A stretch of DNA of 64,000 nucleotides from Candidatus Zhuqueibacterota bacterium (GCA_016783505.1 JADHWK010000001.1:62001-126000); one strand, 5' to 3'. Shown: positions 1 to 20,533, counted from the stretch's first letter. Numbers and translations are program-made. Notes: generated by a model not told the origin, from the sequence alone.

Positions 1-1044
1 GGCCAGCTTCCGGCAGCAAAGCTCCCTTACTTCGGGGGCGTTCTCCCCGATTCCTCCGGTAAAGACCACCCCATCCAGTCCCCCCATGGCGGCTCCGTAG
101 GCAGCGATATACTTCCTCACCCGGTAACAGAAGACGGCCAGGGCCAATCTTGCCCGACGATGGCCATTTTGGGATTCTTGCAAGATCTCCCTCATGTCGT
201 TCGATACCCCGGAAATACCCAGCAGTCCGGAATGTTTGTTGAGAAGGACGTTGGCATCGCCCAGCGAGAGCTCCTCCCGACCCATGATGTGGAGGAGGGC
301 CGCCGGGTCCACATCCCCGCACCGGGTGCCCATCAGCAGCCCTTCCACCGGGGTAAATCCCATTGAGGTGTCTATGGATACTCCCCCGTCCACCGCCGCC
401 ATACTGCACCCGTTTCCCAGATGGCAGGTGACCAGTTTGAGCTCCTTTATATCCCGACCCAGCATCCCCGCCGCCCGCCGGGAGATATAATAGTGGGAGG
501 TGCCGTGAAAACCATATCGCCGGATGCCGTATTTTTTATAGAGTGAATAGGGAATACCGTATAGGTAAGCGAAGTCTGGCATTTGGGAGTGGAAGGCAGT
601 GTCGAATACCGCCACCTGGGGGGCTTGGGGAAGGAGGCGTCCGCAGGCCTTGATCCCCTTAATGTTATGGGGATTGTGGAGAGGGGCCAGCTCGATGCAC
701 TCCTCCAGTTGATCCATGACCTCGGGGTTGATGAGAACCGATGTCCTGAACTTCTCCCCCCCATGTACCACCCGGTGCCCCACTGCGGCGATCTCCCCAC
801 TGTCAGTGATCACCCCATGATTAGCGGACAGAAGAATAGAGAGAACGCATTCAATGGCCGCTTGATGATCGGGAATGGCCGCCGCAAGTTTTACCTTATC
901 CCCGTCGTAACGCCGATGGGAAAGCACCGCCCCTTTCATCCCGATCCGTTCCATCAATCCCCTGGCTAAGGCCTTCCGCCCGGTCATTTCAATGAGCTGA
1001 TACTTGACCGAGGAACTACCGCAGTTTAAGACTAAAATCTTCAT
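1..1044 (-). CDS. ackA: Acetate kinase; 3' end runs off the window; absent from the ORF track
   Basis: Manual translation from ATG at 1044 gives MKILVLNCGSSSVKYQLIEM, with later GHRVVHGG, APLHNP, FDTAFH, RYGFHGTSH and GLDGVVFTGGIGEN motifs. Confidence 0.95.
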   Translation of the reverse strand, partial: MKILVLNCGSSSVKYQLIEMTGRKALARGLMERIGMKGAVLSHRRYDGDKVKLAAAIPDHQAAIECVLSILLSANHGVITDSGEIAAVGHRVVHGGEKFRTSVLINPEVMDQLEECIELAPLHNPHNIKGIKACGRLLPQAPQVAVFDTAFHSQMPDFAYLYGIPYSLYKKYGIRRYGFHGTSHYYISRRAAGMLGRDIKELKLVTCHLGNGCSMAAVDGGVSIDTSMGFTPVEGLLMGTRCGDVDPAALLHIMGREELSLGDANVLLNKHSGLLGISGVSNDMREILQESQNGHRRARLALAVFCYRVRKYIAAYGAAMGGLDGVVFTGGIGENAPEVRELCCRKLA

Positions 1045-1068
1045 GTTCAATACCACAAGGCAATTCTT

Positions 1069-1494
1069 TCAACAAAGTTCCTCTTCTTTGAAGAAGAAGG
1101 CCACCTCTCGAACGCCATTCTCGGGACTGTCCGACCCGTGGACGGCGTTCCGCTCGATGTTTTCAGCATAGAGTTTGCGAAGGGTGCCCGGGTCGGCCTG
1201 GGCCGGGTCGGTAGCCCCGATGACCCGCCTCAGACGGGACACGGCGTCCTCCCCTTCCAGGGCCATGAGCACCACCCTCCCGGAGGTGACATAGTTAAGA
1301 AGACCCTCATAAAAGGGTTTGCCCCGGTGGACAGCGTAGAAATCGGCCGCTTGGTCCCGGGAGAGCCTCACCATCCTCATGCCCCGGATGATGAACCCCT
1401 CCTGTTCAATACGCCTGATGATGTCCCCGATGTGACCCTTGCCCACCCCATCAGGTTTAATAATTAACAAAGTCCTTTCGAACATATTCTCCAT
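1069..1494 (-). CDS. ndk: Nucleoside diphosphate kinase
   Basis: ERTLLIIKPDG and NAVHGSDS catalytic His motif. Confidence 0.97.
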   Translation of the reverse strand: MENMFERTLLIIKPDGVGKGHIGDIIRRIEQEGFIIRGMRMVRLSRDQAADFYAVHRGKPFYEGLLNYVTSGRVVLMALEGEDAVSRLRRVIGATDPAQADPGTLRKLYAENIERNAVHGSDSPENGVREVAFFFKEEELC

Positions 1495-1503
1495 TTTGAA
1501 AAC

Positions 1504-4464
1504 TTAGCCCTTCGGCAAAATGTCTTCCACTAATTTGTCAATAATTCGACTTACCTGCTCGGTGCACTGACTAAAGGCCGCCAGTAGTTTCTCTTCCGGG
1601 GGCTGGCCATCAGAATCGGAAAAGCCCAGCACTCGGGCCGCCCTTCCCAAGGATTGGGGATACAGGGTATCGTCGGCCGCCGAGGAAAGTCGGTAGACAT
1701 CCCGCAGGTTTTTAAGAAAATCGAAGGCTTCGGAAAGCTCCTGAAATTCCCGGGTGTGATCTTTATCTATCTTCCCCAACGTTTCGAAGAGCCGGTTGCT
1801 GATAGGCTCCCTCAACCGATACCGGGCCTTATACATCAACAGCACCATCTCGATGTCCCGAAGCCCCCCCCGGGACTCCTTCACATTCAGCTCCGTCCCT
1901 TCACAATGCCGGGACTCGATCTCGCCCTTCATCTCACAAACATAAGACTCCCATTTTTCAAAGATGTGGGGCTTGATGATCCTCTCCTCAAATTCCCTTT
2001 CAAAAGCGGAGCTCCCCACTACCATTCGGGAACCCAAGATCTGGGATTTATCAATAAAGGAATCGGAGTCCACATGCTCCGAAAAATAGCTATCCAGCTC
2101 ACAGAGCCGGGTCACATAATTACCAAAGTGCTGGACGAATCGGTAATGGGGAAGAATCCCCCGTTTGATAATCTCGGTGTTCATCTTGGTGACGATCTTA
2201 GTTGTGTATTTCAGAATGTCCGGATCATCCGAATTCAGGATAAAGACGATGTCGTAATCGTCGTCATAGGCCTGCTCCCGGGCATGCCCCCCGGCCACGT
2301 AAATTGCCAGTAGATCATCGGTGGTTACCCCACTGGGCTGACCCAGATCAACCTCCTGTTTGCAGATATCAAACAGGGTTTGAAGGTAATTATCCGAGAA
2401 CTCAGTGAAAGCGGCGTTCGTCTCCTGAATAGGGGCCCCCTTCAGGGTCTGAAGGCCCACCCGAAGGAAGGCCAGGTCGTAATAATCCCCAACCTCTTCT
2501 TTTTTCCCCGCAAATGAACGAATGTTTTCAATGTTCGCCAGAATGCCATCCGCCAGATGTGCCAGCTTCCAGGGATCATCCAGATGCTTGAGGTATTCTG
2601 GATAACGTTCAATAACCCGCAGGAAGAATCTCTTGAAATATCGGCTGTTAGCATAATGGAGCTCACAGAGATGGACCATCTTGTCCCTCAGTCCCGCCAC
2701 CTCCGGCTCCCATATTTTCCCCCTTAACAACCCGGCAAAGGCCTGTTGCTCTTCTTCCGGGATGGCGGTTAGATAATCGTGGATCAGTTGAGGATACTGG
2801 TTGAACACCCGGGTTAACTTCTGAATCGTATTGGGATGATCGCTCATCGTCCTGAGAAAGATCCCGTTGAGATCCCTGAAGAGGGGGGTGCTGGAAAAAC
2901 GCTTCCGATTTTTATGCAGGATAACCAGAAGGCTCAGAAGGGCATAAAAGCTATAGCTGCCCCACTCGATGTAACGTCGAATAATCCTTTTTCTCTCGGT
3001 CACGCCCAGGGCGTTAAAATCATCCAGAAAACGAACCAGGAGTTGACCGTCCTTCTCCCCGAAAGCCTCCAGCACGTCATCCCAGAATTTGGTCCCCCGG
3101 AAAAATCTCAATTGACCGCCAAAATCAACGGCTAAATTTACCCCCTTTTTTTTTCCAGATTCTTTTAAACGACCCTTATCCAGCATAGGGGCAAAGATAC
3201 TGATGGTCTTAAGATGCTCGGCGGCATCCTGAAAAAGAACACCGATGGTGTCCTTTGCCATGGCAACGTTCTCATAATAATGGATGAGAAGATGATCCCG
3301 AGCCCTGATGACCCCCACGTCTTGGTATCCCATGATTTCAGCAATCCGCTGTAAATCGGGGGCTGTCTGATCATCCCCGAGGAAGATCTCCTCCTCCTGT
3401 GCCACAAAGAGCTGGTATAAATACCGGAAGATTTCCAGAAAAGTTAGCGCTCGATCCAGGTTCTGGTAGACCCAGGTTCGAGCAGGGTTCTTTTGGGTCA
3501 GCGCTTCTAGGATCTCCCAGTTGTTGACCTTCTTTACCCCGAAGATAACCTTGCCCACCGAGATCAACCCCTTTATCAGTCGCAATCCATCGTCCTTGGG
3601 GTTGATGCTATCTTCTTTCATCTTGCGTAAATGGAGGGATCTTACCTCGCCCAGAATGCCCCGCAGATACCCCTCATGGTATTTATTGTTTCCACCGGGT
3701 TGATAGTAATAACGGGAGGTTACCCCCTGCTGGAATTGACCGAAGAGTTCCTCGCTTCCCAGGATCCTGGCGGCTCCCAGCATCTCTGAAATGATGATAA
3801 AATCCTGAATTTCCTTATCCAAAAGGTGATTATATTCAGCGATTGAGGCGGAATACCCAGGGGCTCCCACGTGTTCGGAAAGATAGAAATGAAGGGGACT
3901 GGCCCGTTTGAACATCTCTGAACTGATTTGACCGATGGCCTGGTTCAAGGGTGACCGCTTAGGACCCCCGTCGTCAATAATGCCCACGTCAATGTCGTCC
4001 TGGTCGGCCCGGGTGCCTACCCCACAGATGACAAATTGGGATCGTTCCCCGGCGGGAAGGAACAGATTCAATAAGGCATCCATATAGGCGGTGGTCAATT
4101 TGCGGAATTCCAGCCCCACCCGCTTCATGAATTCCTTATAGACCCCCAATCGGTCGGGGGCCGAAGCTAAGTTCATCACCAGCACGTCCACCGCCCTTAA
4201 GTTCATGTTCAGAACCTGCAGGGCATAGTAACAGCTTAGAAAGGACAGCTTTTCTCCCAAATCCTTTCCCAGGGCCCCAATGGTTTCCATCTCAGCAGAA
4301 GCTTCATGGGCAGGGGTCCACAGGTGCACCCGGTCCGCCTTCCCAGAGGCCTCCAACCGTTCGACCAGCTTGCCCTTATGAGCGGCGATGGTCAGAAGAA
4401 ATTTACGGTTGTGATTACCCAGTTGTTCAACCCGGTCCTTTAATCGGACCAACGGTTCGGGCAT
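1504..4464 (-). CDS. Large GlnE-like protein with two nucleotidyltransferase domains
   Basis: Two Pol-beta-type motifs (GVGTRADQDDIDVGII and GGHAREQAYDDDYDIVFI), each followed by a GlnE/GlnD-like segment (NPKDDGLRLIK and NVKESRGGLRDIE); 986 aa. Confidence 0.7.
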   Translation of the reverse strand: MPEPLVRLKDRVEQLGNHNRKFLLTIAAHKGKLVERLEASGKADRVHLWTPAHEASAEMETIGALGKDLGEKLSFLSCYYALQVLNMNLRAVDVLVMNLASAPDRLGVYKEFMKRVGLEFRKLTTAYMDALLNLFLPAGERSQFVICGVGTRADQDDIDVGIIDDGGPKRSPLNQAIGQISSEMFKRASPLHFYLSEHVGAPGYSASIAEYNHLLDKEIQDFIIISEMLGAARILGSEELFGQFQQGVTSRYYYQPGGNNKYHEGYLRGILGEVRSLHLRKMKEDSINPKDDGLRLIKGLISVGKVIFGVKKVNNWEILEALTQKNPARTWVYQNLDRALTFLEIFRYLYQLFVAQEEEIFLGDDQTAPDLQRIAEIMGYQDVGVIRARDHLLIHYYENVAMAKDTIGVLFQDAAEHLKTISIFAPMLDKGRLKESGKKKGVNLAVDFGGQLRFFRGTKFWDDVLEAFGEKDGQLLVRFLDDFNALGVTERKRIIRRYIEWGSYSFYALLSLLVILHKNRKRFSSTPLFRDLNGIFLRTMSDHPNTIQKLTRVFNQYPQLIHDYLTAIPEEEQQAFAGLLRGKIWEPEVAGLRDKMVHLCELHYANSRYFKRFFLRVIERYPEYLKHLDDPWKLAHLADGILANIENIRSFAGKKEEVGDYYDLAFLRVGLQTLKGAPIQETNAAFTEFSDNYLQTLFDICKQEVDLGQPSGVTTDDLLAIYVAGGHAREQAYDDDYDIVFILNSDDPDILKYTTKIVTKMNTEIIKRGILPHYRFVQHFGNYVTRLCELDSYFSEHVDSDSFIDKSQILGSRMVVGSSAFEREFEERIIKPHIFEKWESYVCEMKGEIESRHCEGTELNVKESRGGLRDIEMVLLMYKARYRLREPISNRLFETLGKIDKDHTREFQELSEAFDFLKNLRDVYRLSSAADDTLYPQSLGRAARVLGFSDSDGQPPEEKLLAAFSQCTEQVSRIIDKLVEDILPKG

Positions 4465-4476
4465 ACCCTCTTCCCC

Positions 4477-5232
4477 TCACAAGGATTTAACAATAGACAA
4501 CAAAGATATTGGCCTGAGATTATCCCCATAACCCAATTCAGAAATATTTGATGCCAGTTCAGTAAGGTTTTTCTTAAACAACCCTTTGTTCCTCAACTGG
4601 GAAGCCTTGGCGGCTGTGTGTTTCCAGAAAACTGGATTTCCGAAATTCCCGTTTAATATAATCATAATGTGCCTTAAATCCACCCCCATGCTGTCCCGGC
4701 GGTCGAGCTCGCCTGAAAACCGGGAAGTAATAAGCTTTTCCACGAACACATCCCAGGGATGGGCGAGGAATAAAAACCAATGGATTTCCCTCCCGTCCCC
4801 CAGTTCAACCCGACCCCGAAGGGGACCTCTCTTTTTAAGGGTGGTATAATGATGATGGAAGAAATTATCCCTAAGGAGGTAGTCTACGTTGAACCAGCCC
4901 CGGTCAAAGGACCAGGCGGTATGGAAGCTGCGGATGCTCCTGCCCACCATTAAGGCTTCATCGTAGTGAACGATCCTCAAATCGGGGGATTTAGGCAGGT
5001 CAATGAAATCATACAGGGATTTTTCATCCCGGAACAGAAGGTCTAAGTCCCACCAAGCGGTGTATTTTAAATACCCCTGCATAAGCAGGGACATGGCCCC
5101 CACCACGATGAAAGATGGGTCATTCTTACTCAGAACTCGGGAAAGCTCTTGCAGGATCAGAAGAAGGTTGGTACGCCGTTTGGTATCAACGTAAAGATAC
5201 CAAGGTCGCTCTGTTTGGCACTCTGCCGTCAT
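4477..5232 (-). CDS. Hypothetical protein, putative nucleotidyltransferase fold
   Basis: FIVVGAMSLL...WDLDLLF resembles the GG/GA...DxD signature; later VEKL and DLRHI helices. Confidence 0.5.
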   Translation of the reverse strand: MTAECQTERPWYLYVDTKRRTNLLLILQELSRVLSKNDPSFIVVGAMSLLMQGYLKYTAWWDLDLLFRDEKSLYDFIDLPKSPDLRIVHYDEALMVGRSIRSFHTAWSFDRGWFNVDYLLRDNFFHHHYTTLKKRGPLRGRVELGDGREIHWFLFLAHPWDVFVEKLITSRFSGELDRRDSMGVDLRHIMIILNGNFGNPVFWKHTAAKASQLRNKGLFKKNLTELASNISELGYGDNLRPISLLSIVKSL

Positions 5233-5266
5233 GGTCTCTGGCCCAAGATAGTGGGTTTTGCCCCCA

Positions 5267-5821
5267 TCAATCCTTTTCCTTCAGGGCTTTCCCTTTTTCC
5301 AACCCCACCCGAAAGGCCTTGAGGTTCAGCTCTTCGGTCCCCTTGGGCACCCGGGACAGGATGGCAGATTCCACCGCCTCCCGGGAGACGACCCCTGAAA
5401 GCTCGGTAATGATACCCAAGGCTACTATATTGGCAACCAACACCTTTCCCACCTGACTCCGGGCGATTTCGGAGATGGGCACCTTATAGTTCCTGAAATT
5501 TCCCCGGGGAAGCTGGGTCACGTATTCTGAATCCACCAGCAGGATGCCCCCATCCTTTAAATCTTTGTAATATTTATCGCAGGATTCCTGGGTCAGGGCT
5601 AACAGGAGATCTATATTGGTAGCCTTGGGGTAGTCAATATCCTCATCGGAGATAATCACCTCTGACCGGCTGGCCCCGCCCCGGGCCTCGGGGCCGTAGG
5701 ACTGGGATTGGGTAGCGTTCTTATCATCATAGATGGCGGCTGCTTCCGCCAGTACCTTACCCACCAGAATAAGCCCCTGTCCCCCGGAACCGCTGAGTCT
5801 CACCTCATATCGGAATCCCAT
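5267..5821 (-). CDS. korC: 2-oxoacid:ferredoxin oxidoreductase gamma subunit (set 1)
   Basis: MGFRYEVRLSGSGGQG, SYGPEARGG; start moved to ATG at 5821. Confidence 0.9.
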   Translation of the reverse strand: MGFRYEVRLSGSGGQGLILVGKVLAEAAAIYDDKNATQSQSYGPEARGGASRSEVIISDEDIDYPKATNIDLLLALTQESCDKYYKDLKDGGILLVDSEYVTQLPRGNFRNYKVPISEIARSQVGKVLVANIVALGIITELSGVVSREAVESAILSRVPKGTEELNLKAFRVGLEKGKALKEKD

Positions 5822-5837
5822 AGCGCACTCCTTTAGT

Positions 5838-6650
5838 TCAACCCATGTTTTGGACCCGTTCAATAAGTTTGTTATATTCCTCCGTATATTCCGGCTTTTC
5901 AATGTCCACCAAAACGCCAGTGACAATCTTCTCCCCCCGCTGCTCCGGGGATATGGTGGAGGCCGCTTTGAGGGAAATGGTATTTCCCTGATACCATTTG
6001 AGCATGTTGCTCGCCGTCCCCATCCGGTTCCACTTTCCATACATGATGGGACATGGAGTCAGCGCTTCGACCACCGAGAATCCCTTCTTACGGATGGCCC
6101 GTTCGATAAACTTATCCAGAAGCAGGGCGTGGTATACTGTCCCCCGAGCCACAAAGGTGGATCCAGCCGCCTGGGCCAGTGCGGAGATATCAAAGGGATG
6201 CTCTATGCTTCCGTAGGGGGCAGTGGAGCCATGCATGCCAAATGGGGTGGTGGGGGAATACTGCCCCCCGGTCATCCCGTAGATGTAATTATTGAAAATG
6301 ATGGCGGTGAGGTCAATATTTCGTCGGGCGGCATGGATGAAGTGGTTGCCCCCGATGGCGGTGGCGTCCCCATCTCCCATGACGACGATCACCGTGAGCT
6401 TGGGGTCAGCCATCTTGACCCCGGTGGCAAAGGTCAGCGCCCGACCGTGGGTGGTATGCAGGGTATTGAAATCGCAGTAACCGGGCGTCCGCGATGAACA
6501 GCCGATCCCCGACACCATGACGATTTCATCCTTAGACAGTCCGATGCGGTCAATCGCCCGCAAGATGGCCTTGAGCACGATCCCGTTCCCGCAACCTTCG
6601 CACCAGATATGGGGAAATTTGTCCTGACGTAGGTATTTGTTATAATCCAT
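5838..6650 (-). CDS. korB: 2-oxoacid:ferredoxin oxidoreductase beta subunit (set 1)
   Basis: WCEGCG, SGIGCS, TPP motif GDGD...NNYIYGMTGGQ. Confidence 0.92.
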   Translation of the reverse strand: MDYNKYLRQDKFPHIWCEGCGNGIVLKAILRAIDRIGLSKDEIVMVSGIGCSSRTPGYCDFNTLHTTHGRALTFATGVKMADPKLTVIVVMGDGDATAIGGNHFIHAARRNIDLTAIIFNNYIYGMTGGQYSPTTPFGMHGSTAPYGSIEHPFDISALAQAAGSTFVARGTVYHALLLDKFIERAIRKKGFSVVEALTPCPIMYGKWNRMGTASNMLKWYQGNTISLKAASTISPEQRGEKIVTGVLVDIEKPEYTEEYNKLIERVQNMG

Positions 6651-6789
6651 CGTTACCACTTAATGAAGTAAACAAGGCTAAAAATGGCTCAGAAAAAAAT
6701 TCATTGAATCCCTGTTAAGTCCTTTTATGCCCTATTAAACCATTTAGCCATCTATGGTTTTTTTAAATCATTTGTCATGAGTTATGGGA

Positions 6790-7929
6790 TTATTTTTTTA
6801 ATAAATCAAGGATCTGCTGGGGGCTGATGGGCTCCCCATCTACCCTAGTTAGGGGTACCACCTTTGTTTTACCTTCAGCGGAACATTTGACCAATTGGGC
6901 CACCTGTCCCAGGTTCATTTCTGGGACGATGATGCGTTTAACCTGATCCGCCAATTTAGTAACCTGTTCCTCCGGAAATGGCCATAGGGTCACCGGCCTC
7001 AATAATCCCACTTTGATCCCTTCCTCCCTGGCCATAATTACCGCTCGTCGGGCTGAACGAGCCGTGGACCCGTAGGCCACCACCCCGATTTCGGCATCCC
7101 CTAGTTCTAGTTCGGCCACTTCAATTATATCGTCCCTATATCGCTCGATCTTCCGGTTGATCCGACGGAGGAGGCTGTTGATCTTGGCCGGATCATTAGT
7201 GGGGAACCCCGTCTCGTCGTGGCACAGGCCAGTCACGTGATAGCGATACCCTTCGCCGAAATTGGCCATGGGTGGAATGTCATCTTCAGTTTGACAGTAG
7301 GGCAGATAGTCTTCAGGTGATACCATGGGCTTTTGTCGGTCAATAATTTCTATTTCCGATGGGTGGGGCAGACGGACTTTTTCGTTCACATGACCCACGA
7401 TCTCGTCCATGAGAAGAATGACCGGCACCCGGTATTGTTCCGCCAGGTTAAAGGCCCGCACTGTTAGCTCGAAGGTTTCCCGGACGGAGTAGGGGGCCAG
7501 GACGATCACCGGGTGATCCCCGTGGGAGCCCCAGCGGGCCTGCATCACATCACCCTGGGAGGGGAGGGTGGGCAATCCTGTAGAAGGCCCCCCCCGCATG
7601 ACATTGACGATCACACAGGGAATTTCGGCGATGGCGGCATAACCGATGTTCTCCTGTTTCAGGGAAAAGCCGGGTCCTGAGGTGGCCGTCATCGCTTTAA
7701 CCCCGACCAGACTGGCCCCGATCACCGCCCCCATGGAAGCGATTTCATCCTCCATCTGGATGAACCTCCCCCCTATCCGGGGAAGCCGTTGGGACAGGAT
7801 CTCGGCGATCTCTGAAGACGGGGTTATGGGATAACCGGCGAAGAAACTTAAACCCGCCGCCAGCGCCCCCTCGGCACAGGCCTCGTTGCCCTGCATTACC
7901 CGGACATTTTTTGATTTATTTATTGCCAT
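6790..7929 (-). CDS. korA: 2-oxoacid:ferredoxin oxidoreductase alpha subunit (set 1)
   Basis: YPITP, QMEDEI, ATSGPG, RGGPSTG. Confidence 0.92.
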   Translation of the reverse strand: MAINKSKNVRVMQGNEACAEGALAAGLSFFAGYPITPSSEIAEILSQRLPRIGGRFIQMEDEIASMGAVIGASLVGVKAMTATSGPGFSLKQENIGYAAIAEIPCVIVNVMRGGPSTGLPTLPSQGDVMQARWGSHGDHPVIVLAPYSVRETFELTVRAFNLAEQYRVPVILLMDEIVGHVNEKVRLPHPSEIEIIDRQKPMVSPEDYLPYCQTEDDIPPMANFGEGYRYHVTGLCHDETGFPTNDPAKINSLLRRINRKIERYRDDIIEVAELELGDAEIGVVAYGSTARSARRAVIMAREEGIKVGLLRPVTLWPFPEEQVTKLADQVKRIIVPEMNLGQVAQLVKCSAEGKTKVVPLTRVDGEPISPQQILDLLKK

Positions 7930-7987
7930 AAGCAATGATGAGTTCTAAACCCGATCAAGGTTGGTCTTCTGGCCAAATAGAGAACCC

Positions 7988-10243
7988 CTATTTCCCCTCC
8001 CGATACCGGGCATCCACAACTGCGATGGCGGTCATATTGACGATGTCGTTCACTTCGCAGCCTCGCTGAAGCACGTGCACCGATTTTCTCATTCCCATCA
8101 AGATGGGGCCGATGGCCTCGGCTCCACCAAGGCGGTTCATAAGCTTGTAGGCGATGTTCCCCGATTGCAGGTCGGGGAAGATAAGCACGTTGGCCCTCCC
8201 TTTCAGGGCTGAGAAGGGGTAGGTGGACTCGATAATTTCGGGCGTCACCGCGGTATCCGCCTGCATCTCACCGTCTATCATCAGGTTAGGGACCTTTTCC
8301 TTTACGATTTCTACCGCCCGGCGGACCTTCTCGGTCAATGGATGACGGGTGCTCCCGAAGTTAGAAAAGGAAAGCATGGCCACCCGGGGTTCCACATCGA
8401 AACGGCGGGCGGTTTCGGCGCTGCATATAGCAATCTCGGCCAGTTGTTCCGCCGTAGGCTCAATGTTGACCGTGGTATCGGCAAAAAAGATGATTTCTTT
8501 TTTAAAGATCATCATGTAAACACCGGACACCCTGTGAATACCTTCCCGCATTTTGATGATCTGCAGGGCCGGTCGGATGGTGTCCGGGTAGTGATGGATC
8601 AAGCCGCTGATCAGCCCATCAGCATCCCCCTTGTTCACCATCATGGCCCCGAAATAGTTTGGCACCGCCATAAGGTCGCGGGCCTCACTTCGGGTAATCC
8701 CCCGACGCCTCCTGATCTGATAAAACTCTTCTACATAATCGGAAAATTCTTCAGAGGCGGGGGGGTCGATGATCTTAACCCCCTTTAAATCCAGGTGTAG
8801 ATCGGCTATTTTTTTCCGAATGTCCCCATGGTTGCCCAGCAGGATGGGTTGGGCGATTCCCTCATCAATGATGATCTGACAGGCCCTTAGAATCTTTTCC
8901 CGGTTACCCTCGGGGAAGACAACCCGCCTGGGGGCAGCCTGGGCCTTATGGATCACCGACCGCATCACCATTCGGGAAGGACCCAGCCTGGCTTCTAGTT
9001 GCTCCCGGTATTGGTCAAGCTCAATCTGGATTCGGGCCACCCCGTCCTCCATGGCTGCCTTGGCCACCGCGGTGGCCTCCCACAGAAGCACCCGGGGATC
9101 GAAGGGTTTGGGGATAATGTACTCCGGGCCAAACCCGATCCTCTCGTCCCCATAGGCCTTGAGCACCGAATCGGGGACATCCTGCTTGGCCAGGTCGGCC
9201 AGGGCATGGGCGGCGGCGATCTTCATGTTCTCGGTAATCGCTGTGGCCCGCACATCCAAAGCCCCCCGGAAGATGAACGGAAACCCCAAAACGTTGTTTA
9301 CCTGGTTGGGATAATCGCTGCGACCGGTAGCCATAATTACATCGGGACGGGCGGCCCTGGCATCGGTATAGGTGATCTCCGGATCGGGGTTGGCCATGGC
9401 GAAAACGATGGGATCCTTGTTCATGGACTTGACCATATCTGGGGTAACCGCATCCTTCACCGATACCCCCACGAAGACATCAGCCCCCACCATGACCTCC
9501 TTCAGTGTTCTCAGATCGGTATCAGCAACAAACCGCTCCTTATAGGGGTTCATTCCTTCCTCCCTACCCTTGTAGATCACCCCCTTTGAATCACACATAA
9601 TAATATTTTCCCGCTTGACGCCAAAGGCCAGGTAAAGGGAGGCACAGGCGATGCCCGCCGCTCCGGCCCCGTTAAAGACCACCCTGACTTCCCCGATGGG
9701 CTTGTCGGTCAACTCTAGGGCATTGAGGAGAGCGGCTCCTGAGATGATGGCGGTACCGTGCTGATCATCGTGGAAGACCGGGATGTTCATGGTCTCCTTC
9801 AACTTCTCCTCGATGTAGAAGCACTCCGGGGCTTTAATGTCCTCTAGGTTAATCCCCCCGAAGGTGGGCTCCAGGAGCTGAACCACCCGGATCAATTTAT
9901 CGGGATCCTCGGTGTCCACCTCCAGGTCGAAAACGTCCACGTCGGCGAACCGTTTGAATAGAACCCCCTTGCCCTCCATTACGGGCTTCCCCGCCTGGGC
10001 GCCAATGCGGCCCAACCCCAGCACTGCTGTCCCGTTAGTGATTACAGCCACCAGATTACCCTTAGCAGTGTACTGGTAGACTTCATCGGGGCTTCTTTTT
10101 ATCTCCAGGCAGGGTTCGGCCACTCCGGGGGTATAAGCTAACGAGAGGTCCCGTTGAGTAACGCAGGGTTTAGTGGCGATCACCTCAATTTTCCCCCTCC
10201 GACCCTGTCTGTGGTAATCAAGAGCATCCTGCTTTCTGATCAT
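7988..10243 (-). CDS. maeB: NADP-dependent malic enzyme with C-terminal phosphotransacetylase-like domain
   Basis: [33 protein letters not shown], then PTA domain (VVFPEG, DGEMQAD, GPIL). Confidence 0.95.
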
Positions 10244-10279
10244 GTTATTCCCCCTGTCCTAAGATTTCACTTTCACCTT

Positions 10280-10489
10280 TTAGGCGTTTACCACTTCTAC
10301 CATAATGGCAAAATCCGGGCAGCGCACCTCGCATAGCATGCACAGGTTGCAGGCTTCAAGGTCCATCACTTCGGGATAGCCGTCCTTCATGGCCAGCACA
10401 TTTTTGGGACAGAAATCAACGCAGATGCTGCATCCCTGACACCAGGATTTATTTATTTCAATAACTGGATGACCCTTTTTCTTATTCAT
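10280..10489 (-). CDS. korD: 2x[4Fe-4S] ferredoxin, oxidoreductase delta subunit (set 1)
   Basis: CQGCSICVDFCP and CNLCMLCEVRCPDFAI; ATG at 10489. Confidence 0.85.
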   Translation of the reverse strand: MNKKKGHPVIEINKSWCQGCSICVDFCPKNVLAMKDGYPEVMDLEACNLCMLCEVRCPDFAIMVEVVNA

Positions 10490-10597
10490 GGCTTGCAGTT
10501 GAAAAAAAGGAGCATCAGCGCCCCTCTTCACGGAAGAATTATGTAGCCGTTTCACATCATAACTAAAAGATTACAAATCTTAATTGGTTCAGGATTT

Positions 10598-11959
10598 TCA
10601 CTCTGGCGTCTTGATGAATCCCTCTTCCATCAGTAGCTGGATTTCCTTCCTCGCCTTCTGGATGATATTTGACGCTTTGCGAAACAGCTCCTCCCGGGTG
10701 GTCTTAATCTTGGCCACCCCCTGTTCAATAGCCTTCATTCCCACCGCCGCTGCCTCCCTGGGATAGACTTCCCATTCCTCCATTGTGGGAATAATGGATT
10801 CATCATTAAGACCTTTATCCTCAGCGCATTGGGCCAGCTCGAAGGCGGCGGCAACGCACATCTCATCGGTGATAGTGGAGGCCATCACATCCAGGGTGCC
10901 CCGGAAGATGCCGGGGAAGCCCAGTGAATTGTTGACCTGGTTGGGGAAATCCGACCGTCCCGTAGCCACGATCCGGGCCCCGGCCGCCTTGGCCTCCCAG
11001 GGCCAGATCTCAGGGATGGGATTGGCGCAAGCGAACACGATGGCATCCCCAGCCATACTTTTAACCCATTTCTTCTGAATAACACCGGGACCCGGGGTGG
11101 AGAGGGCGATCAATACATCAGCCTTCTTCATCGCCTCCGGGATTCCCCCCCTGCGCCCCTCGGCATTGGTCTTCTGACACAGCTCCCATTTCTCCTTCTC
11201 ACTATCCTTGAGATCATCCCGACCGGGATGAAGGGTCCCTTTCCTATCCACCATGATGATCTTACCCGGGTCGGCCCCAGCCTTGATTAACAGCCAGCAG
11301 ATCCTGATGTTGGAGGCCCCGGCACCCACCATGGTGATCTTCACCTCGGCCAACTCCTTACCCACAACCTTTAAGGCATTGACCAGACCGGCCAGGGTAA
11401 CCGCTGCCGTCCCCTGCTGGTCGTCGTGCCAGACGGGGATGTCTAACTCCTTACGCAGGGTGTTCAGAATGTGAAAACACTTGGGTTTGGCGATGTCCTC
11501 CAGATTAACCCCGGCGAATGTGGGCTGAATCCATTTAACCGCCTGTATGATCTCATCGGGGTCTTTAGTCTTAAGACAAAGGGGAAAAGCATCCACCCCA
11601 CCCAGGTATTTGAACAGGATGGCCTTCCCCTCCATCACCGGCAGCCCGGCCTCTGGTCCGATGTCCCCCAGCCCCAGCACCCGGCTTCCGTCGGTAACCA
11701 CCGCCACCATGTTCCATTTGCTGGTGTGCTCCAGCACCTTCTCAGGATGCTTGTGGATGTCCATGCAGGGTTCCGCTACCCCAGGGGTATACCAGATACT
11801 GAAGTCATCAAAATTCCGGATACAGCACTTGGGAATCACCTCGATCTTCCCCCGGTAAAAGGGATGCAGCCTCATAGCATCCTTGCCCGGCTTGTAGGCC
11901 TTCGCCAGAAGCTCATCGGTCGTCAATTTTTTCTCAGCCACATTAGGGTTTCCTTTCAT
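10598..11959 (-). CDS. NAD(P)-dependent malic enzyme, short form
   Basis: [32 protein letters not shown]; no PTA domain. Confidence 0.92.
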
Positions 11960-12143
11960 TTAAGTTTTTTCCTTAATCCGGCGGACGGAGTTACTCATAC
12001 ACTTGGGGCACGTTCTCTCCGCGGGAACTTTTGGAGTATAAGTGGCCATAAATTCATGACCACATCGCAGGCATTCGAACTTCGCTTCCTCTGCCAATTC
12101 TCATTCCTCCGCATTTAGTCCGTTGTTTTTTCCGCAAGCATTT

Positions 12144-12287
12144 AGCCACTGAGTCACCAAGGCACAAAGGAGAAATATGAGTTTTCAAACAGTACCAGAT
12201 GGTATTAAAAGAACTATTCTATAATCTTGGTGTCTTCGCCTGCCCCGTAGGGAAGAATGACCATATTGGGGTGTCTCTGTGGCTGAA
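12144..12287. repeat. Intergenic imperfect inverted-repeat element
   Basis: AGCCACTGAGTCACCAAGGCAC at the left end pairs with GTGTCTCTGTGGCT at the right; CTTGGTG internal; nested CCCC/GGGG segment. Confidence 0.4.
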
Positions 12288-12301
12288 CTGTTGCTTTTTT
12301 C

Positions 12302-14740
12302 TTAGGCCACCTCTTTAACCTTTACCTTCATCTTGGGCTTTTCCTCAGTTAACACCTTTTTGGTAAATTCGATCTCCTCGGGGGTCACCTTCTTTCTCAG
12401 TTCCTCCAGTTCCCTCATCACCCGGGCAAACTTCTGTCCTTCAGCGGCGCTGATCCACTCCAGCTGCAGTCTCTCCGGCCGGATTCCCAGCTTTTCCAGC
12501 TTATCCCACAGCCTTTCCACCCGGCGCTGGGTCCAGGTGACGGCGTTGATATAATGGCAATCGGCAAAGTGGCATCCGGAGACCAGCACGATGGGAGCCC
12601 CCAGTCGGAACCCGTGGAGGATAAACTTCTCGTCCACCCGGCCCGAGCACATGGTGCGTATCAACCGGGAAGAGGTGGGATACTGAAGCCGGGCGGTGCC
12701 GGCGTTATCCCCCCCGGCATAGGAGCACCAGTTGCAGGCGAAGGTGAGGATCTTCTCCTCGGGCTTTTCGGCCAGGATCTGTTCAAGCTGGGCCATAATC
12801 TGGCCGTCGGTGAAGTGGCGCATGGTAATAGCATCCAGGGGACACTCGGCCCCGCAGGTGCCGCACCCGGCGCAGGCCGCCTCGATGATCATAGGATACT
12901 GATTCTTCTTCCGGTCTGGGGGGACGATGGCATGATAGGGACAGACCTTGACACACTGTCCGCAGAAGTTGCACTTCTCCTCATCCAAAACCCCAGTGAT
13001 AGCCTCAATTTTGACCCTGCCGGCGTTCAACAGGATACTGGCCCGGGCAGCAGCGGCTCCCGCCTGAGTCACAGAGTCCTTGACATCCTTGGGGAATTCG
13101 GCGCAACCGGCAAAATAGACCCCCTGGGTGGGGGCATCCACTGGCTTCAGCTTGGGATGGGATTCCAAAAGAAAACCATCGGCGGAATTGGACAGGGTGA
13201 GCAATTTCTGTATGGCCTTTCCGTCGTGGCGTGGCTCCACCCCCACCGACAGCACCACCATCGCCAGTTCGTGCTGTTCAACCTTCCCGGACAGGGTATT
13301 TTCTACCGAAAGAATAAGATTTTTTTTAACGGGGTTCTCTTCGATGTCCCCGGGAATCCCCCTGATGTATTGGACCCCTTCGGCCTTGCTCCGCTTGAAC
13401 AGGTCCTCAAATCCCTTACCAAAGGCCCGAATATCCATGTAGAATACCTTACACTGAATATCGGGATAATGGTCTTTAAGGATCAATGTGTCTTTCACGG
13501 TATTCATACAGCAGATGTTGCTGCAGAAGGGGTTCCCCCGCTTTTCCGACCGGGAACCCACGCATTGGATGAATCCCACAGTCTTCGGTATTTTTCTGTC
13601 TGTGAGCCGGATGAAGTGTCCCTCGGTGGGGCCCCCGGCGCAGATGAGTCGCTCAAACTCCATGGAGGTAATGACGTTCTCGAACCGGGTGTAGCCGAAC
13701 TCGTCCAACTCGGTGGGATCGTAGACGTCCATCCCAGTAGCCACAATAATGGTCCCCACCTCCAGGGTGATGATCTCATCCTGCATATCGTAGTCAATGC
13801 ACTGTTTCTCGCAGGCCTCCTGGCACTTGCCGCAGGCGATGGGGTTGTTACCCAGGCAATCATCCATGTTCAGAATATAAGAAGAGGGAACAGCCTGGGG
13901 AAAGGGAATGTAGATGGCCTTGCGGGATGAGAACCCCTGCTGGTATTCGTCGGGGATAGCAACGGGACAAACCTGTACACAATCGCTGCAGGCGGTGCAT
14001 TCCTTTTCATTCACATAACGGGCCTTCTTTCGCACCTTGACGGTAAAATTCCCCACGAATCCTGAGACATTTTCTATTTCGCTGTAAGCGTAAAGTTTAA
14101 TCCGAGGATGTCGACCGACATCCATCATCTTCGGTCCCAGAATTCATATGGAGCAATCCATGGTGGGGTAGGTTTTGTCCAAAGCCGCCATGATGCCCCC
14201 GATGGAGGGCTCCTTTTCCACCATGTAGACCTGATGTCCCCCATCGGCCAGGTCCAAAGCCGCCTGGATCCCTGCCACTCCACCGCCGATGACCAGCGCC
14301 GCCTTGGTGACCGGAAATTCAGCCTCCACCTGGGCCTCCAGGTATCGGGCCTTGCCCACCGCTGATCGCAACAGGTCCTTGGCTTTCTCGGTAGCCAGCT
14401 CCTTTTCGTACTGATGGACCCAGCTGCACTGCTCCCGGATGTTGGCCATCTCGAACAGGTAGGGGTTCAACCCCGCCTCGGCCACACAGTTGCGGAAGGT
14501 GGGCTCGTGGATCTTGGGGGTGCAAGAAGCCACCACCACCCGGTTGAGGCGGTGTTCAGCGATGGCCTTCTTGATCTCATTCTGACCCGGGTCAGCACAG
14601 GTGTATCGGTTACGGATCACCGCTACCACATCGGGCAGGGTTTCCGCAAACCGGGCCACCTCAGCACAGTCCACCGTGCCGGCGATGTTAAGCCCGCAGT
14701 CGCAGACAAAAACCCCAATCCGCAGTTCTTGATCGGGCAA
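12302..14740 (-). CDS. hdrA: Heterodisulfide reductase subunit A fused to C-terminal MvhD; probable selenoprotein (TGA at 14144-14146)
   Basis: ORFs 14144..14839 and 12302..14128 are in frame across [24 protein letters not shown] start at 14740 after AGGAGG; FAD motif GGGVAG, ferredoxin motifs, MvhD CNWCSYAG and [10 protein letters not shown]. Confidence 0.9.
14102..14146 (-). promoter_or_regulatory. Bacterial SECIS-like hairpin downstream of the in-frame TGA of hdrA-mvhD
   Basis: mRNA UGA-N20-GGAUGUC-GGUC-GACAUCC, with a lower CCGA/UCGG stem. Confidence 0.75.
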
Positions 14741-14965
14741 TTTTTCCACCTCCTTTAATCTTAGATAGCCCCTGATTGAAATCAGGGTCTGTTCCATGTG
14801 TAAATTGACTGAAGTCGATTTCTTAAATTTAATTGGCAATTCGACGGATTTAGAAAATTAATAGACACCGAATTTATTCGGTGGTCATAAGAGGATAAAA
14901 GAAAAACTTTGTGATAAGTTTGTTGTTGAAGCACTAGGAATAGCTTGTCGGTCTATGTTTATTCT

Positions 14966-16108
14966 TTAAATCAGGGCTTCCGCCGTTAAGGTAGCCAAGT
15001 CCTCAATTTCAATTTTCACCTCATCCGCCGCATTCTGGTCGGATTGGGCGCATTTGAAGTGAATATAGCATTTGGGACAGCCGGTCACTAAAAGGTCAGC
15101 GCCGGTCTGCTTGGCACTCCGAAGCCGACCCAGTTGAATCTGTTTGGATGTCAAATCACAGTTGGTCCAACAGCTGGTCCCGCAGCAGATGGCCATCTCC
15201 CGGCTTTTGGGCATTTCTAATAGGGTAAGCCCGGGGATCTGGGTCAACAGTTGCCGGGGAGGATCATAGATACCCAGGTGCCGACCAAGCCGACAGGGAT
15301 CTTGATAGGTAACCCCCTTTTTCAAAGCATGAAACTTAAGGGCATTATTGGCCACCTTACCCGCCAAGAATTCCGACAGATGAATGACATCAAATCCAAG
15401 CTCACCGACGTATTGGGGATAGTCCAGCTTAAAAGTCCGGTAACATTCAGGACAGGAAAACAGCACCGTCTTAGCCCCGCTTTTTTTTATCTCTGCCACA
15501 TTATGCTCGGCCAATCTCTGGAAGTTTATCATATCACCGGTCCAAAAAAGATCATGACCGCAGCACCGCTCGTTGGGCAGAAGCACGGGTTCAATTCCCA
15601 AATGGTTTAATATTTTGATTACGCTCTTGGCAATTTCTAAACTCTCCACCCCGATGTCCGAAAAGAAGACATCAAAATAGGGCAGACAGCCGACAAAATA
15701 GAGAAACTCTCCTCCCTTGCTGATCTTCAAATCAGAGGAGGCCCAATCCATCCGGTTTTGCTTCAGGTTGGAGGAGGTCATTATCTTTGTCAGGGACTGA
15801 AATACCCCCCCGTGGGAACACAGTCCCTCCTGTCCGCTACGGTTGGATTCGATCCGGGCCAGACGGGTAAACTCGGTGTAGTGAACATCTGAAGGACAGT
15901 GTACGTTGCACATACCACAGGTAAGACAGGTCCAGATCTGTCTATCAACCAATAGCTCATCGTAATGGCCCTGGATGGAACGGGTGATCATCAGGCGGGG
16001 GGAATACTGACCGCCGAATCGGGAAATGGGGCAGACGCTGGTGCACTTACCGCATTCCAAACAGTTAAACAGATTGGTCTTTTTGGCTATTTCTGTTAAA
16101 TCACCCAT
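14966..16108 (-). CDS. HdrD-like Fe-S protein (2x[4Fe-4S] plus two CCG domains)
   Basis: CLECGKCTSVCP, CLTCGMCNVHCP, ERCCG, DPCRLGR, ICCG; ATG at 16108. Confidence 0.85.
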   Translation of the reverse strand: MGDLTEIAKKTNLFNCLECGKCTSVCPISRFGGQYSPRLMITRSIQGHYDELLVDRQIWTCLTCGMCNVHCPSDVHYTEFTRLARIESNRSGQEGLCSHGGVFQSLTKIMTSSNLKQNRMDWASSDLKISKGGEFLYFVGCLPYFDVFFSDIGVESLEIAKSVIKILNHLGIEPVLLPNERCCGHDLFWTGDMINFQRLAEHNVAEIKKSGAKTVLFSCPECYRTFKLDYPQYVGELGFDVIHLSEFLAGKVANNALKFHALKKGVTYQDPCRLGRHLGIYDPPRQLLTQIPGLTLLEMPKSREMAICCGTSCWTNCDLTSKQIQLGRLRSAKQTGADLLVTGCPKCYIHFKCAQSDQNAADEVKIEIEDLATLTAEALI

Positions 16109-16112
16109 ATTA

Positions 16113-16556
16113 TTATTTAGTTTTTTCTGATACCAGCGGACTGGGCCCCAGTTGGGTAACCTCGTCCACGAATTCGTCAATTATCTGCCCCCAGCGGGTC
16201 CCTTCGGCCGCTGAAATCCATTCCAACCGCAACCGCTTCTCCTCGAGACCCAGAAGTCGGATCATCTTCTTGGTTTTTTCAAACAGCTCTACGGCTCGCT
16301 CGTTGCCGAATATATAGTGGCAGTCCCCGAAGTGACACCCGGAGACCAGTACCCCATCGGCCCCGAGTTGAAAGGCTTTTAGGATGAACCCGGGTTTTAC
16401 CCTGCCGGAGCACATGGTGCGAATGACCCGGAAGTGGGGGGAATACTGAATCCGGTTTACCCCGGCGTTATCGGCCCCGGCGTAGGAACACCAGTTGCAG
16501 GCAAAGGCCACGATTTTGGGGTGAAACCCATTTTTTTTAATCTTCTTCTGAGCCAT
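16113..16556 (-). CDS. mvhD: MvhD-family [2Fe-2S] subunit
   Basis: [36 protein letters not shown]. Confidence 0.93.
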   Translation of the reverse strand: MAQKKIKKNGFHPKIVAFACNWCSYAGADNAGVNRIQYSPHFRVIRTMCSGRVKPGFILKAFQLGADGVLVSGCHFGDCHYIFGNERAVELFEKTKKMIRLLGLEEKRLRLEWISAAEGTRWGQIIDEFVDEVTQLGPSPLVSEKTK

Positions 16557-16574
16557 ATAAATCCTTAAACACAA

Positions 16575-19500: not shown

Positions 19501-19622
19501 AGGCTGGGGGAGCGCTCCACCAGATAGACCTTGATCCTGGAGTTAGCCAGGTCTAAAGCCGCTTGAATCCCGGCTATCCCTCCCCCGACGACAAGAACAC
19601 CTTTTGTTGTTTTGTCTTCCAT
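16575..19622 (-). CDS. hdrA: Tandem (double-FAD) HdrA-like protein; probable selenoprotein (TGA at 19443-19445)
   Basis: ORFs 19443..19667 and 16575..19427 are in frame across [21 protein letters not shown]; two GGGxAG FAD motifs, internal IGVFLCHCG domain, ferredoxin motifs. Confidence 0.88.
19405..19445 (-). promoter_or_regulatory. Bacterial SECIS-like hairpin of the second hdrA
   Basis: mRNA UGA-N20-GGAUGCC-GGUC-GGCAUCC; same spacing and loop as the first copy, with a compensatory pair. Confidence 0.75.
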
Positions 19623-19638
19623 TTTTCCCGATTGTAAT

Positions 19639-20526
19639 TTACCCCGCAACCGCCCCCAATTTTTCAATCAGCTTCGGGGCTTTAATCTTGTGCCAGTGCA
19701 GACCCATATCCTCGGGGTTAAAGCCCTGTGCTAAGGCCAGCAATTGAAAGTAATAGATTATCGGGATGTCAAATCTTTTACCAAACTTGCGGGCCAGCTT
19801 TAGCTGACCCAGATCGTATTCATCAAAACAGGTAGGGCAGATCAGGCCCATGCAGTCCACATTCAATTTTTCCACCGATGCCAGCACATCATAGGTCATC
19901 TGGGCGGGCATCTCCTCGTCCATACAGGCCTTTCCGCAGCAGAGGACCCGTTCCTGGTGGGATACGGGCTCGGCCCCGATAGCGGCCACCAGGTCCTCCA
20001 AAATGGTGGGCCGGTCGGGATCATCAACCGACATCACCCGACTTGGCTTAAGCAGATGGCAGCCGTAATGGATGGCCACCCTCATTCCCTCTAAGGGGCG
20101 GGTTACCGACTGGGCAACCTTATCAATTCCCAAATCATCGCGGATGACGGTAACGATGTGCCTGACTCTGATTGTCCCCCTAAAGGTTCTTCCGATCCTC
20201 TGCAACCTCCTGTTCACCCTGGCCTTCAGTTTGGGATCCCCGGTCAGCAGGTGACGGGTCTCGGATAAAGTCGCCGTGCATCCGCTGCACATGGTGACCA
20301 AGTCCAATCCAGCCTCTTCGGCTAAGCAGAGGTTACGGGCCGCCAGGGTCAGCCAGGTCAATTTGTCCGATGATTTAAAATAGATGGGATCGGGACAGCA
20401 GGAAAACCCCTCTACATCCACCAGTTCGATCCCCAGCCTGGGCAGGGTCTTCCGAACTGCCGCTTCAAACTGGGGGTATTTGGCTGAGATCATGCAGCCG
20501 AAAAAGGGGATGTATCTCAAGTTCAT
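19639..20526 (-). CDS. hdrB: Heterodisulfide reductase subunit B
   Basis: FFGC, SCCP, TMCSGC, HYGCH, LCCG, CPTC motifs; ATG at 20526. Confidence 0.9.
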
Positions 20527-20533
20527 GACTATC

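Follow-up and report, generated by a model that had tools for sequence, protein, structure and literature searches.

Our results identify, in a 64,000-nucleotide stretch of DNA from a Candidatus Zhuqueibacterota bacterium (GCA_016783505.1 JADHWK010000001.1:62001-126000; the whole stretch is called the window here), a 986-amino-acid (aa) protein, NT2 (P0001), that carries two nucleotidyltransferase (NTase) modules in tandem. NT2 has a GlnE/GlnD-like architecture and fold, lies outside both of these canonical families and is encoded in synteny with korC, the gene for the gamma subunit of a 2-oxoacid:ferredoxin oxidoreductase (OFOR). The neighbouring open reading frame (ORF) encodes a smaller NTase of 251 aa, P251 (P0002). 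Structural modelling predicts that NT2 binds KorC. We propose that NT2 is a tandem nucleotidyltransferase dedicated to the Kor enzyme, which docks on KorC and reversibly nucleotidylylates it, its C-terminal module (C module) acting as the transferase and its N-terminal module (N module) as the remover or regulator; the chances for and against this proposal seem to us about equal. That such a GlnE-like bifunctional enzyme covalently nucleotidylylates the coenzyme A (CoA)-binding gamma subunit of a 2-oxoglutarate:ferredoxin oxidoreductase is put forward tentatively, and on this point we lean slightly towards doubt.

A sequence-only reading of this DNA had described a protein with two DxD-type NTase motifs, each followed by a GlnE/GlnD-like segment, and both the translation and the presence of the Pfam domain PF08335 (GlnD_UR_UTase) behind each motif bear this out. 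PF08335 scores 68.8 bits in total on NT2, with the best stretch at aa 857-978 and a copy of 21.4 bits behind the first motif; in the genome to which the window belongs (2.5 Mb, 89 contigs, 60% complete, and the sole genome of its phylum in the GTDB set used), PF08335 matches occur solely inside NT2. In a 33-sequence alignment of the family, the residues G150, Q155, D156, D157 and D159 of the N-module motif GVGTRADQDDID and G725, G726, R729, D735, D736 and D738 of the C-module motif GGHAREQAYDDDYD are invariant. The feature of the polymerase-beta-like NTase superfamily, G[GS]...DxD on an NTase fold, is found in both modules of NT2 and in P251.

The two halves of NT2, aa 1-432 and 555-986, are homologous to each other (hhalign probability 99.6%, E 1.4e-24, 351 columns, 21% identity). 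The C module aligns with the NTase plus PF08335 region of a real GlnD (E 3.9e-13, 240 columns) and with the N half of GlnE (E 2.5e-11), and weakly with the C half of GlnE (E 0.005); the N module alone gives no significant hhalign match to GlnE or GlnD (E 0.0072 to 0.37). Since the N module is akin to GlnE solely through the C module, the duplication appears to be internal to the NT2 family and not inherited from GlnE, and the two modules look as if they arose within their own family. The C module retains the GlnD/GlnE motifs GG..RE....D.D and NVK...GGLRDIE. Its segment AGGHAREQ-AYDDDYDIVF pairs with LGGYGREELAPYSDVDILF of GlnD in the alignment, NVKESRGGLRDIE pairs with NVKLSPGGLRDYQ of GlnD and NIKLMEGGIRDIEF of GlnE, and the C-terminal motif matches LGGYGREELAPYSDVD of GlnD and GKLGGRELNYSSDID of GlnE residue for residue. 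The earlier statement that the GlnE motif is replaced in this protein was therefore too strong: the C motif aligns with GlnD and GlnE, and the N motif alone is shortened, by four residues.

Like GlnE, NT2 proteins have about 950-1000 residues and a pair of NTase modules in tandem, with a helical domain of the PF08335 type behind each, and the C module has G-G...D-x-D and K...GG[IL]RDIE. Unlike GlnE, NT2 has korC as its genomic partner, not glnA or glnB, and it has no counterpart of the GlnE segment DLRLRP; an invariant PHYRF stands there, between the DxD motif and PF08335. The C module aligns best with the NTase and PF08335 of GlnD, but a second NTase module occupies the place of the GlnD HD hydrolase.

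NT2 is outside the canonical GlnE and GlnD families. PF03710 gave no match to NT2 even at E <=10, nor in a six-frame search of the genome, and a control GlnE, from a Latescibacterota-labelled metagenome-assembled genome (MAG; G011), scores 242 bits on the same model. NT2 reaches 26.3 bits on the NCBIfam GlnE model NF008292 (cut-off 724), 16.1 bits on NF010706 (cut-off 487) and 74 bits on the GlnD model TIGR01693 (cut-off 519). Pfam finds no HD or ACT domain in NT2, whereas the control GlnD of G011 has both, and DUF294 (PF03445 / PF10335) does not match NT2 at E <=10; precomputed annotations place PF03445 on one NT2 homologue and PF03710 on one. PF03710 is present in only one of 15 NT2-carrying genomes, and in the other 14 PF08335 occurs solely in NT2. 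G011 harbours a compact glnB-glnE-glnD-glnA cluster (L071, G011:C12:55000-67000), and its NT2 gene (L005) follows korDABC on a different contig, so that two paralogues each adjoin a different enzyme. The searches of hidden Markov models (HMMs) and of structures against GlnE, GlnD and DUF294 that the sequence-only reading had proposed thus agree with its suspicion of a protein apart from GlnE: the fold is GlnE/GlnD-like, the family cut-offs are failed, DUF294 is unmatched and NT2 coexists with a true GlnE. The accessible part of a Geobacter genome paper mentions only the canonical glnE, in another operon.

NT2 is likewise not tied to glutamine synthetase (GS) or PII. PII was found in six of the 15 NT2 genomes and not in four records titled as chromosomes, nor in the window's own, 60%-complete genome; as had been noted before, glnA, glnB and glnD are not found in the window. 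The single GS match of this incomplete genome is a 441-aa protein on another contig, nearest to Bacillus and archaeal GSI-alpha structures (446-464 bits, vs about 245-259 for those of E. coli, Salmonella and M. tuberculosis). Compared with the glnE-linked GS of G011, it is without two insertions and reads NIFEMSP where G011 has NIYDLPP, which puts a Phe at the position of the Tyr in DKNIYDLPPEE. We take this Tyr to be the adenylylation site of the G011 enzyme, and the insertion missing from the GS of the window's genome to be the GSI-beta insertion.

The AF2 model of NT2 is confident (pLDDT 88.8, pTM 0.80). Foldseek at E <=0.001 returned only GlnE 1v4a (4.3e-10), GlnE 3k7d (two chains) and DrrA 6yx5. 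Superposition with VIA-align, using aa 550/568-981 on GlnE and 647-986 on DrrA, gave Z 33.8 for the C module on E. coli GlnE 1v4a (385 aligned residues, root mean square deviation (rmsd) 3.5), Z 31.0 on GlnE 3k7d (358 aligned, rmsd 3.1) and Z 22.8 on DrrA 6yx5 (296 aligned, rmsd 3.8). All three of these nearest solved folds are enzymes that covalently AMPylate proteins. The region aa 115-421 matches aminoglycoside nucleotidyltransferases only (Z about 8), and the central region, aa 422-605, has generic helical-repeat matches only (Z 6-8). At the sequence level, NT2 and P251 found nothing significant among PDB sequences, and the NT2 family profile found weak GlnE matches only (E 0.0012 and 0.071). 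The AMPylation domain of DrrA/SidM (6yx5, 3nku) shares the GlnE-like AMPylase fold with NT2; unlike NT2, it is a single module in a secreted effector with unrelated further domains, and there is no sequence-level match. DrrA/SidM modifies a Tyr of a folded protein substrate. Another bifunctional enzyme that adds and removes a group, and is encoded in the operon of the pathway that it controls, is AceK, which acts on isocitrate dehydrogenase; the analogy with NT2 is functional only. AceK catalyses phosphorylation, not nucleotidylylation, and has a kinase/phosphatase fold, and no kinship in sequence or fold is expected.

The link to KorC comes from conserved gene order, counted by tblastn of the window proteins on 67 distinct NT2 loci of species representatives. 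NT2 has a KorC-like neighbour no more than 1 kb away in 41 of the 67 loci (38 upstream and co-directional, 3 downstream and convergent), and in 36 of the 50 with flanks of 1.5 kb or more upstream and 0.8 kb or more downstream; KorC matches are present in 42 of the 67. Of the 55 loci with at least 3 kb upstream, 30 have korA or korB there on the same strand, at most 3.5 kb away; when both sides and distances up to 5 kb are counted, the number is 39 of the 67. The median identity of KorC, 76%, is above the values for KorA and KorB (62-73%) and for NT2 (42-56%), and the kor-NT2 arrangement persists at 42-56% NT2 identity in lineages with at least eight phylum labels. Four loci (L062, L065, L068 and L069) have a stand-alone KorC-like gene (40-54% identity) immediately before NT2, with no korAB in the same direction. 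Two of them, L068 and L069, have a divergent kor-like operon next to it, which includes a gamma subunit of its own that is more distant (39%). In a KorC tree, a long-branched clade unites the stand-alone genes of L065, L068 and L069.

The sequence-only reading had named AckA, Ndk, malic enzyme or the oxidoreductase as possible targets. Of the 49 loci with 2 kb or more downstream of NT2, just 7 have ndk on that side and 5 have ackA, and no malic-enzyme gene was seen among the conserved neighbours; these locus counts rule out ndk, ackA and the malic enzymes as conserved partners. Conservation of the neighbourhood, which the earlier reading had proposed as a check, therefore holds for kor, and ndk, ackA and the P251 gene are lineage-specific. 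The oxidoreductase is the candidate target that is favoured, by the synteny with KorC-like genes and by the complex prediction.

For that prediction, NT2 433-986 was modelled together with KorC (184 aa, 26-row alignment), each with its own unpaired alignment. The pair gave ipSAE values of 0.75, 0.75 and 0.67 (median 0.75), against 0.00 for all three controls; 116 of 157 solved complexes attain the pass mark, as do 2 of 215 mismatched pairs, and these counts apply only roughly here since our own alignments were used. The partners have pLDDT 86-88, and at least 90% of the contacts agree between runs. KorC is predicted to dock on the catalytic DxD face of the C module. On NT2 the interface comprises D735-D736, a helix and strand at 755-783 (with the invariant K767, G769, P772 and H773), E848, the invariant R852, 927-938 and 607-612; on KorC it comprises residues 22-30, 35-47 (NATQSQSYGPEAR), 61-66 (DIDYPK) and 155-161. 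Among 64 family members, conservation is higher at the interface than elsewhere in 433-986 (mean top-residue fraction 0.66 vs 0.52, Mann-Whitney p 7e-4). Searches of PDB chains with NT2 and with KorC found no structure that combines a GlnE-like protein with an OFOR gamma subunit; it thus seems unlikely that the pass comes from the memory of the model, though these searches are not conclusive.

In anaerobes, OFORs serve as the reversible gateways that link CoA esters, CO2 and low-potential ferredoxin, and this role covers both the reductive and the oxidative tricarboxylic acid (TCA) cycle. By its sequences, the enzyme next to NT2 is of the Kor/Oor type, with four subunits. KorB and KorC have Kor/Oor models as their best NCBIfam matches, with scores just under the cut-offs. 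A KorC profile reaches 248 bits on the unassigned gamma subunit 3on3 and 135 and 132 bits on structures of OorC, from 2-oxoglutarate:acceptor oxidoreductase, vs only 53-58 bits on PorC and the gamma part of PFOR. Because of these Kor/Oor-type scores, and of the sdh/fumarase genes that are the alternative context of NT2 (see below), the substrate is most likely 2-oxoglutarate. Domain III, the counterpart of the gamma subunit where there are four subunits, is reported to bind CoA and, on binding it, to shift by about 7 Å and cover the active site (PMC13768988); in the Sulfolobus enzyme it is described as a peripheral 'wing' (PMC5020499).

A mechanism can be proposed on this basis. The C-terminal catalytic face of NT2 would dock onto KorC, and the canonical C module would move a nucleoside monophosphate (NMP) from a nucleoside triphosphate to a hydroxyl side chain on the docked surface, where Y42, Y64, T37 and S39 are candidate acceptor residues within the predicted interface. 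The divergent N module would remove the NMP or regulate its transfer. A bulky NMP on the surface of KorC could plausibly block CoA binding or the closure of the domain. The outcome would be a switch on oxidoreductase activity, and hence on the flux between 2-oxoglutarate and succinyl-CoA, in the way GlnE switches glutamine synthetase. For NT2 itself we infer the covalent transfer, its site, the nucleotide, its reversibility and the physiological signal.

P251, the second NTase, has the invariant residues G45, W61, D62, D64, D117, K166, R171 and D185, and its model is confident (pLDDT 93.2) with an NTase fold, in agreement with the third putative NTase motif (G45...D62-x-D64...D117) that had been noted in an ORF 12 bp from NT2. 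Its likeness to known folds, namely JHP933, the MenT/TglT nucleotidyltransferase toxins and TM1012, is limited to TM 0.40-0.45. On DUF6036 (PF19502) it scores 15.4 bits vs a cut-off of 23.6, and its homologue in locus L048 scores 24.3 bits; the nearest Atlas clusters are AbiEii/DUF6036 (score 0.95-0.96). The family has 31 representatives at E <=0.001 among 1.84 billion clusters. Its gene lies directly upstream of NT2 in 19 of the 67 loci, with spacings of 0-102 bp, and in all 19 it stands in this NT2 context; the notion that P251 is a constant partner of NT2 is contradicted by this count. P251 is an intact minimal nucleotidyltransferase and its gene a lineage-specific accessory. It shares with DUF6036, AbiEii, MenT and JHP933 an NTase fold with G...DxD...D, but unlike AbiEii and MenT it belongs to a tiny family and a defence or toxin-antitoxin context was not found with PADLOC.

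Several findings weigh against the proposed action of NT2 on KorC. Between its glycines and DxD, the N module has a loop that is four residues shorter than that of the C module, and with PHYRF in place of DLRLRP the catalytic geometry may differ from that of GlnE. The complex score is the model's own confidence and covers the C half of NT2 only, and the conservation of the interface is in part plain conservation of an active site. Tyr42 of KorC is Phe in two paralogous gamma subunits and Tyr in OorC and PorC structures, which rules it out as an NT2-specific marker, and Tyr64 is also Tyr in the 70%-identical solved gamma subunit 3on3, so that no residue marks the NT2-linked KorC. All 67 of the kept loci come from MAGs, and they share ancestry and are not independent events. 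Adjacent KorC is missing in 18 of the 57 loci with at least 1.5 kb upstream, and nine of these 18 have divergent sdhCDAB and fumarase genes instead; the link of NT2 could thus be to the TCA cycle in general.

This last point leads to the view that NT2 modifies some other central-carbon or signal protein and that its position beside kor or sdh/fumarase reflects co-regulation with the TCA cycle, which we consider unlikely. It would account for the nine sdh-linked loci, where kor is elsewhere in the genome, and for the nine further loci (with at least 1.5 kb upstream) that have neither kor nor sdh adjoining NT2. In addition, Asn762, an otherwise invariant residue of the predicted interface (window 2179-2181), is systematically His in the sdh-linked clade (7 of 7 members examined). 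Against this view, KorC docking beat three controls, stand-alone KorC-like genes accompany NT2 in four loci, and the core residues of the interface do not vary in the sdh-linked or the unlinked groups either. Three genomes of the sdh-linked group hold a 64%-identical KorA elsewhere, and a KorA relative at 54% identity or more is present in all 15 of the NT2-carrying genomes examined. A high-confidence interface also suits a stable complex as well as a transient one, and NT2 might bind KorC non-covalently, as a nucleotide- or metabolite-sensing regulatory or assembly subunit, or might make a small-molecule product. The missing DLRLRP counterpart and the atypical N-module motif are consistent with such a role, which we nevertheless think quite improbable, given that both DxD motifs, GG...RE and GGLRDIE are invariant family-wide and that the three closest solved folds are all covalent protein AMPylases.

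That NT2 is a strongly diverged orthologue of GlnE, with glutamine synthetase as the protein that it adenylylates and deadenylylates, is very unlikely. A two-module plan and a length in common with GlnE, the two GlnE domains as the best fold matches and the failure to find a canonical GlnE in 14 of the 15 NT2 genomes would fit this idea, but the GlnE family scores stay far below their cut-offs (16-26 bits vs 487-724, with PF03710 unmatched), NT2 coexists with the canonical glnB-glnE-glnD-glnA cluster in G011, and the N module points to an independent duplication. The GS of the window's genome is GSI-alpha-like with Phe at the Tyr position, PII is found in just six of the 15 genomes, and glnA is not among the recurrent neighbour clusters of the 67 loci, where most neighbour ORFs are unscanned singletons. 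The idea that P251 and NT2 make up an AbiEii/MenT- or MNT-type module for toxin-antitoxin action or phage defence, placed by chance in a metabolic operon, can hardly be credited. P251 does have JHP933 and the MenT toxins as its nearest folds and AbiEii/DUF6036 as its nearest Atlas clusters, but PADLOC matched neither protein, P251 stands beside NT2 in a minority of loci and its small family keeps to the NT2 context there, and NT2 is conserved in the same operon position across at least eight phylum labels. No antitoxin-like neighbour of P251 was seen among the neighbours of the NT2 loci.

The NT2 family is uncharacterised and widespread in uncultured lineages. A protein search with NT2 found 467 proteins at E <=0.001 among 7980 scored candidates, and the best 120 of the 467 all have 956-1014 residues, are 45-99% identical to NT2 and are unnamed or called 'hypothetical'. 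Relatives are encoded in at least 312 of 652 pattern-matched stretches from species-representative genomes. The loci carry labels, unreliable as these are for MAGs, of WOR-3, Stahlbacteria, TA06, Zixibacteria, Latescibacterota, Zhuqueibacterota/KSB1, Calditrichota, Krumholzibacteriota, Acidobacteriota, Gemmatimonadota and Fibrobacteraceae, among others. A search for shorter, single-module forms, among lengths up to 1726 residues, found mostly fragments on short contigs and no clear evidence of split forms.

In full-text literature, where the coverage of subscription journals is thin, we found neither a description of the NT2 family nor a report of covalent regulation of OFORs, including nucleotidylylation. 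What is new here is the NT2 family, its duplication and its predicted target; the chemistry and the fold are already known. To our knowledge, protein nucleotidylylation by the GlnE/GlnD fold has so far been tied to nitrogen control, through GS and PII, and to a single effector of a pathogen. With a tandem enzyme dedicated to an OFOR subunit, this chemistry would reach into carbon and energy metabolism. If the proposal for NT2 and KorC is true, it would be the first known post-translational on/off switch for any 2-oxoacid:ferredoxin oxidoreductase and would mirror the GS/PII cascade on the carbon side of the 2-oxoglutarate node, and the switch would be widespread in lineages labelled WOR-3, KSB1/Zhuqueibacterota, Latescibacterota, Zixibacteria, TA06 and Stahlbacteria. 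It would offer a way into the question of how large groups of bacteria from sediment and soil, as yet uncultured, gate their flux at 2-oxoglutarate. Since both the partner subunit and the interface are specified by the prediction, the hypothesis is directly testable with recombinant proteins.

Table 1. Features of the NT2 locus, in window coordinates (TPP, thiamine pyrophosphate; PTA, phosphotransacetylase).
Feature	Position	Strand	Basis
NT2, 986-aa tandem GlnE/GlnD-type nucleotidyltransferase	1504..4464	-	ORF, Pfam, family alignment, AF2 model
NT2 N-terminal module, aa 1-432: helical lead-in, divergent NTase core, PF08335-like helical domain	3169..4464	-	
N-module motif GVGTRADQDDID, aa 148-159	3988..4023	-	translation, alignment
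NT2 central helical region, aa 433-554	2803..3168	-	AF2 model
NT2 C-terminal module, aa 555-986: canonical GlnE/GlnD-like NTase + PF08335; predicted KorC-docking face	1507..2802	-	
C-module motif GGHAREQAYDDDYD, aa 725-738; D735-D736 in predicted KorC interface	2251..2292	-	translation, alignment
P251, 251-aa minimal nucleotidyltransferase, DUF6036/AbiEii-like; lineage-specific accessory gene	4477..5232	-	
korC, gamma subunit (CoA-binding domain III), Kor/Oor-type; predicted NT2 partner	5267..5821	-	
korB, TPP-binding beta subunit	5838..6659	-	Pfam, NCBIfam
korA, alpha subunit	6790..7935	-	NF006412, 591.5 bits (cut-off 411)
korD, 2x[4Fe-4S] delta subunit; maeB intervenes before korA here	10280..10555	-	Pfam, NCBIfam
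MaeB-type malic enzyme + PTA-like C-terminal domain (operon context)	7988..10243	-	Pfam, NCBIfam
Second malic enzyme, 453 aa (operon context)	10598..11959	-	Pfam, NCBIfam
ndk (operon context; lineage-specific neighbour)	1069..1494	-	
ackA, truncated by window end (operon context; lineage-specific neighbour)	1..1056	-	

Every gene in positions 1-12000 of the window is on the minus strand, with tight packing (Table 1). The order of transcription is malic enzyme, korD, MaeB-type malic enzyme, korA, korB, korC, P251, NT2, ndk and ackA, the identities of the neighbours resting on Pfam and NCBIfam matches, and the placing of both ORFs between korC and ndk-ackA in the sequence-only reading agrees with these coordinates and identities. 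P251 and NT2 are separated by 12 bp and the remaining genes from korC to ackA by 9-34 bp. The korC ORF spans 5267-6040, and its real start is likely the Met at 5821, where homology begins. A promoter and terminator scan of 1-13500 gave no clear operon boundary.

Two malic enzymes share this one operon, and the MaeB-type gene parts korD from korABC; in most relatives korD lies immediately 5' of korA, unlike in the window. An IS200-like (Y1_Tnp) transposase gene is inserted between korC and NT2 in two loci (L009:2589-3260 and L012:9026-9778). Between NT2 and ndk, eight loci of a KSB1-like group have folE2, for GTP cyclohydrolase IB (L004:12977-13741 and seven more), which is absent in the window. 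A protein of about 357 aa is encoded downstream of NT2 in WOR-3/Stahlbacteria-type loci (L019, L021, L023, L028, L034 and L051); it clusters with KSB1-type ackA-like genes, is about 28% identical to the AckA of the window, and may represent a different ASKHA kinase. The malic-enzyme/kor operon is immediately preceded, at 12302-20598 on the minus strand, by an Hdr/Mvh-like cluster that encodes an FlpD(MvhD)-ferredoxin fusion, a CCG-domain HdrB/C-like protein, a second FlpD, a 950-aa HdrA-like flavoprotein and another CCG protein. The content of this cluster suggests ferredoxin-linked electron bifurcation beside the OFOR.

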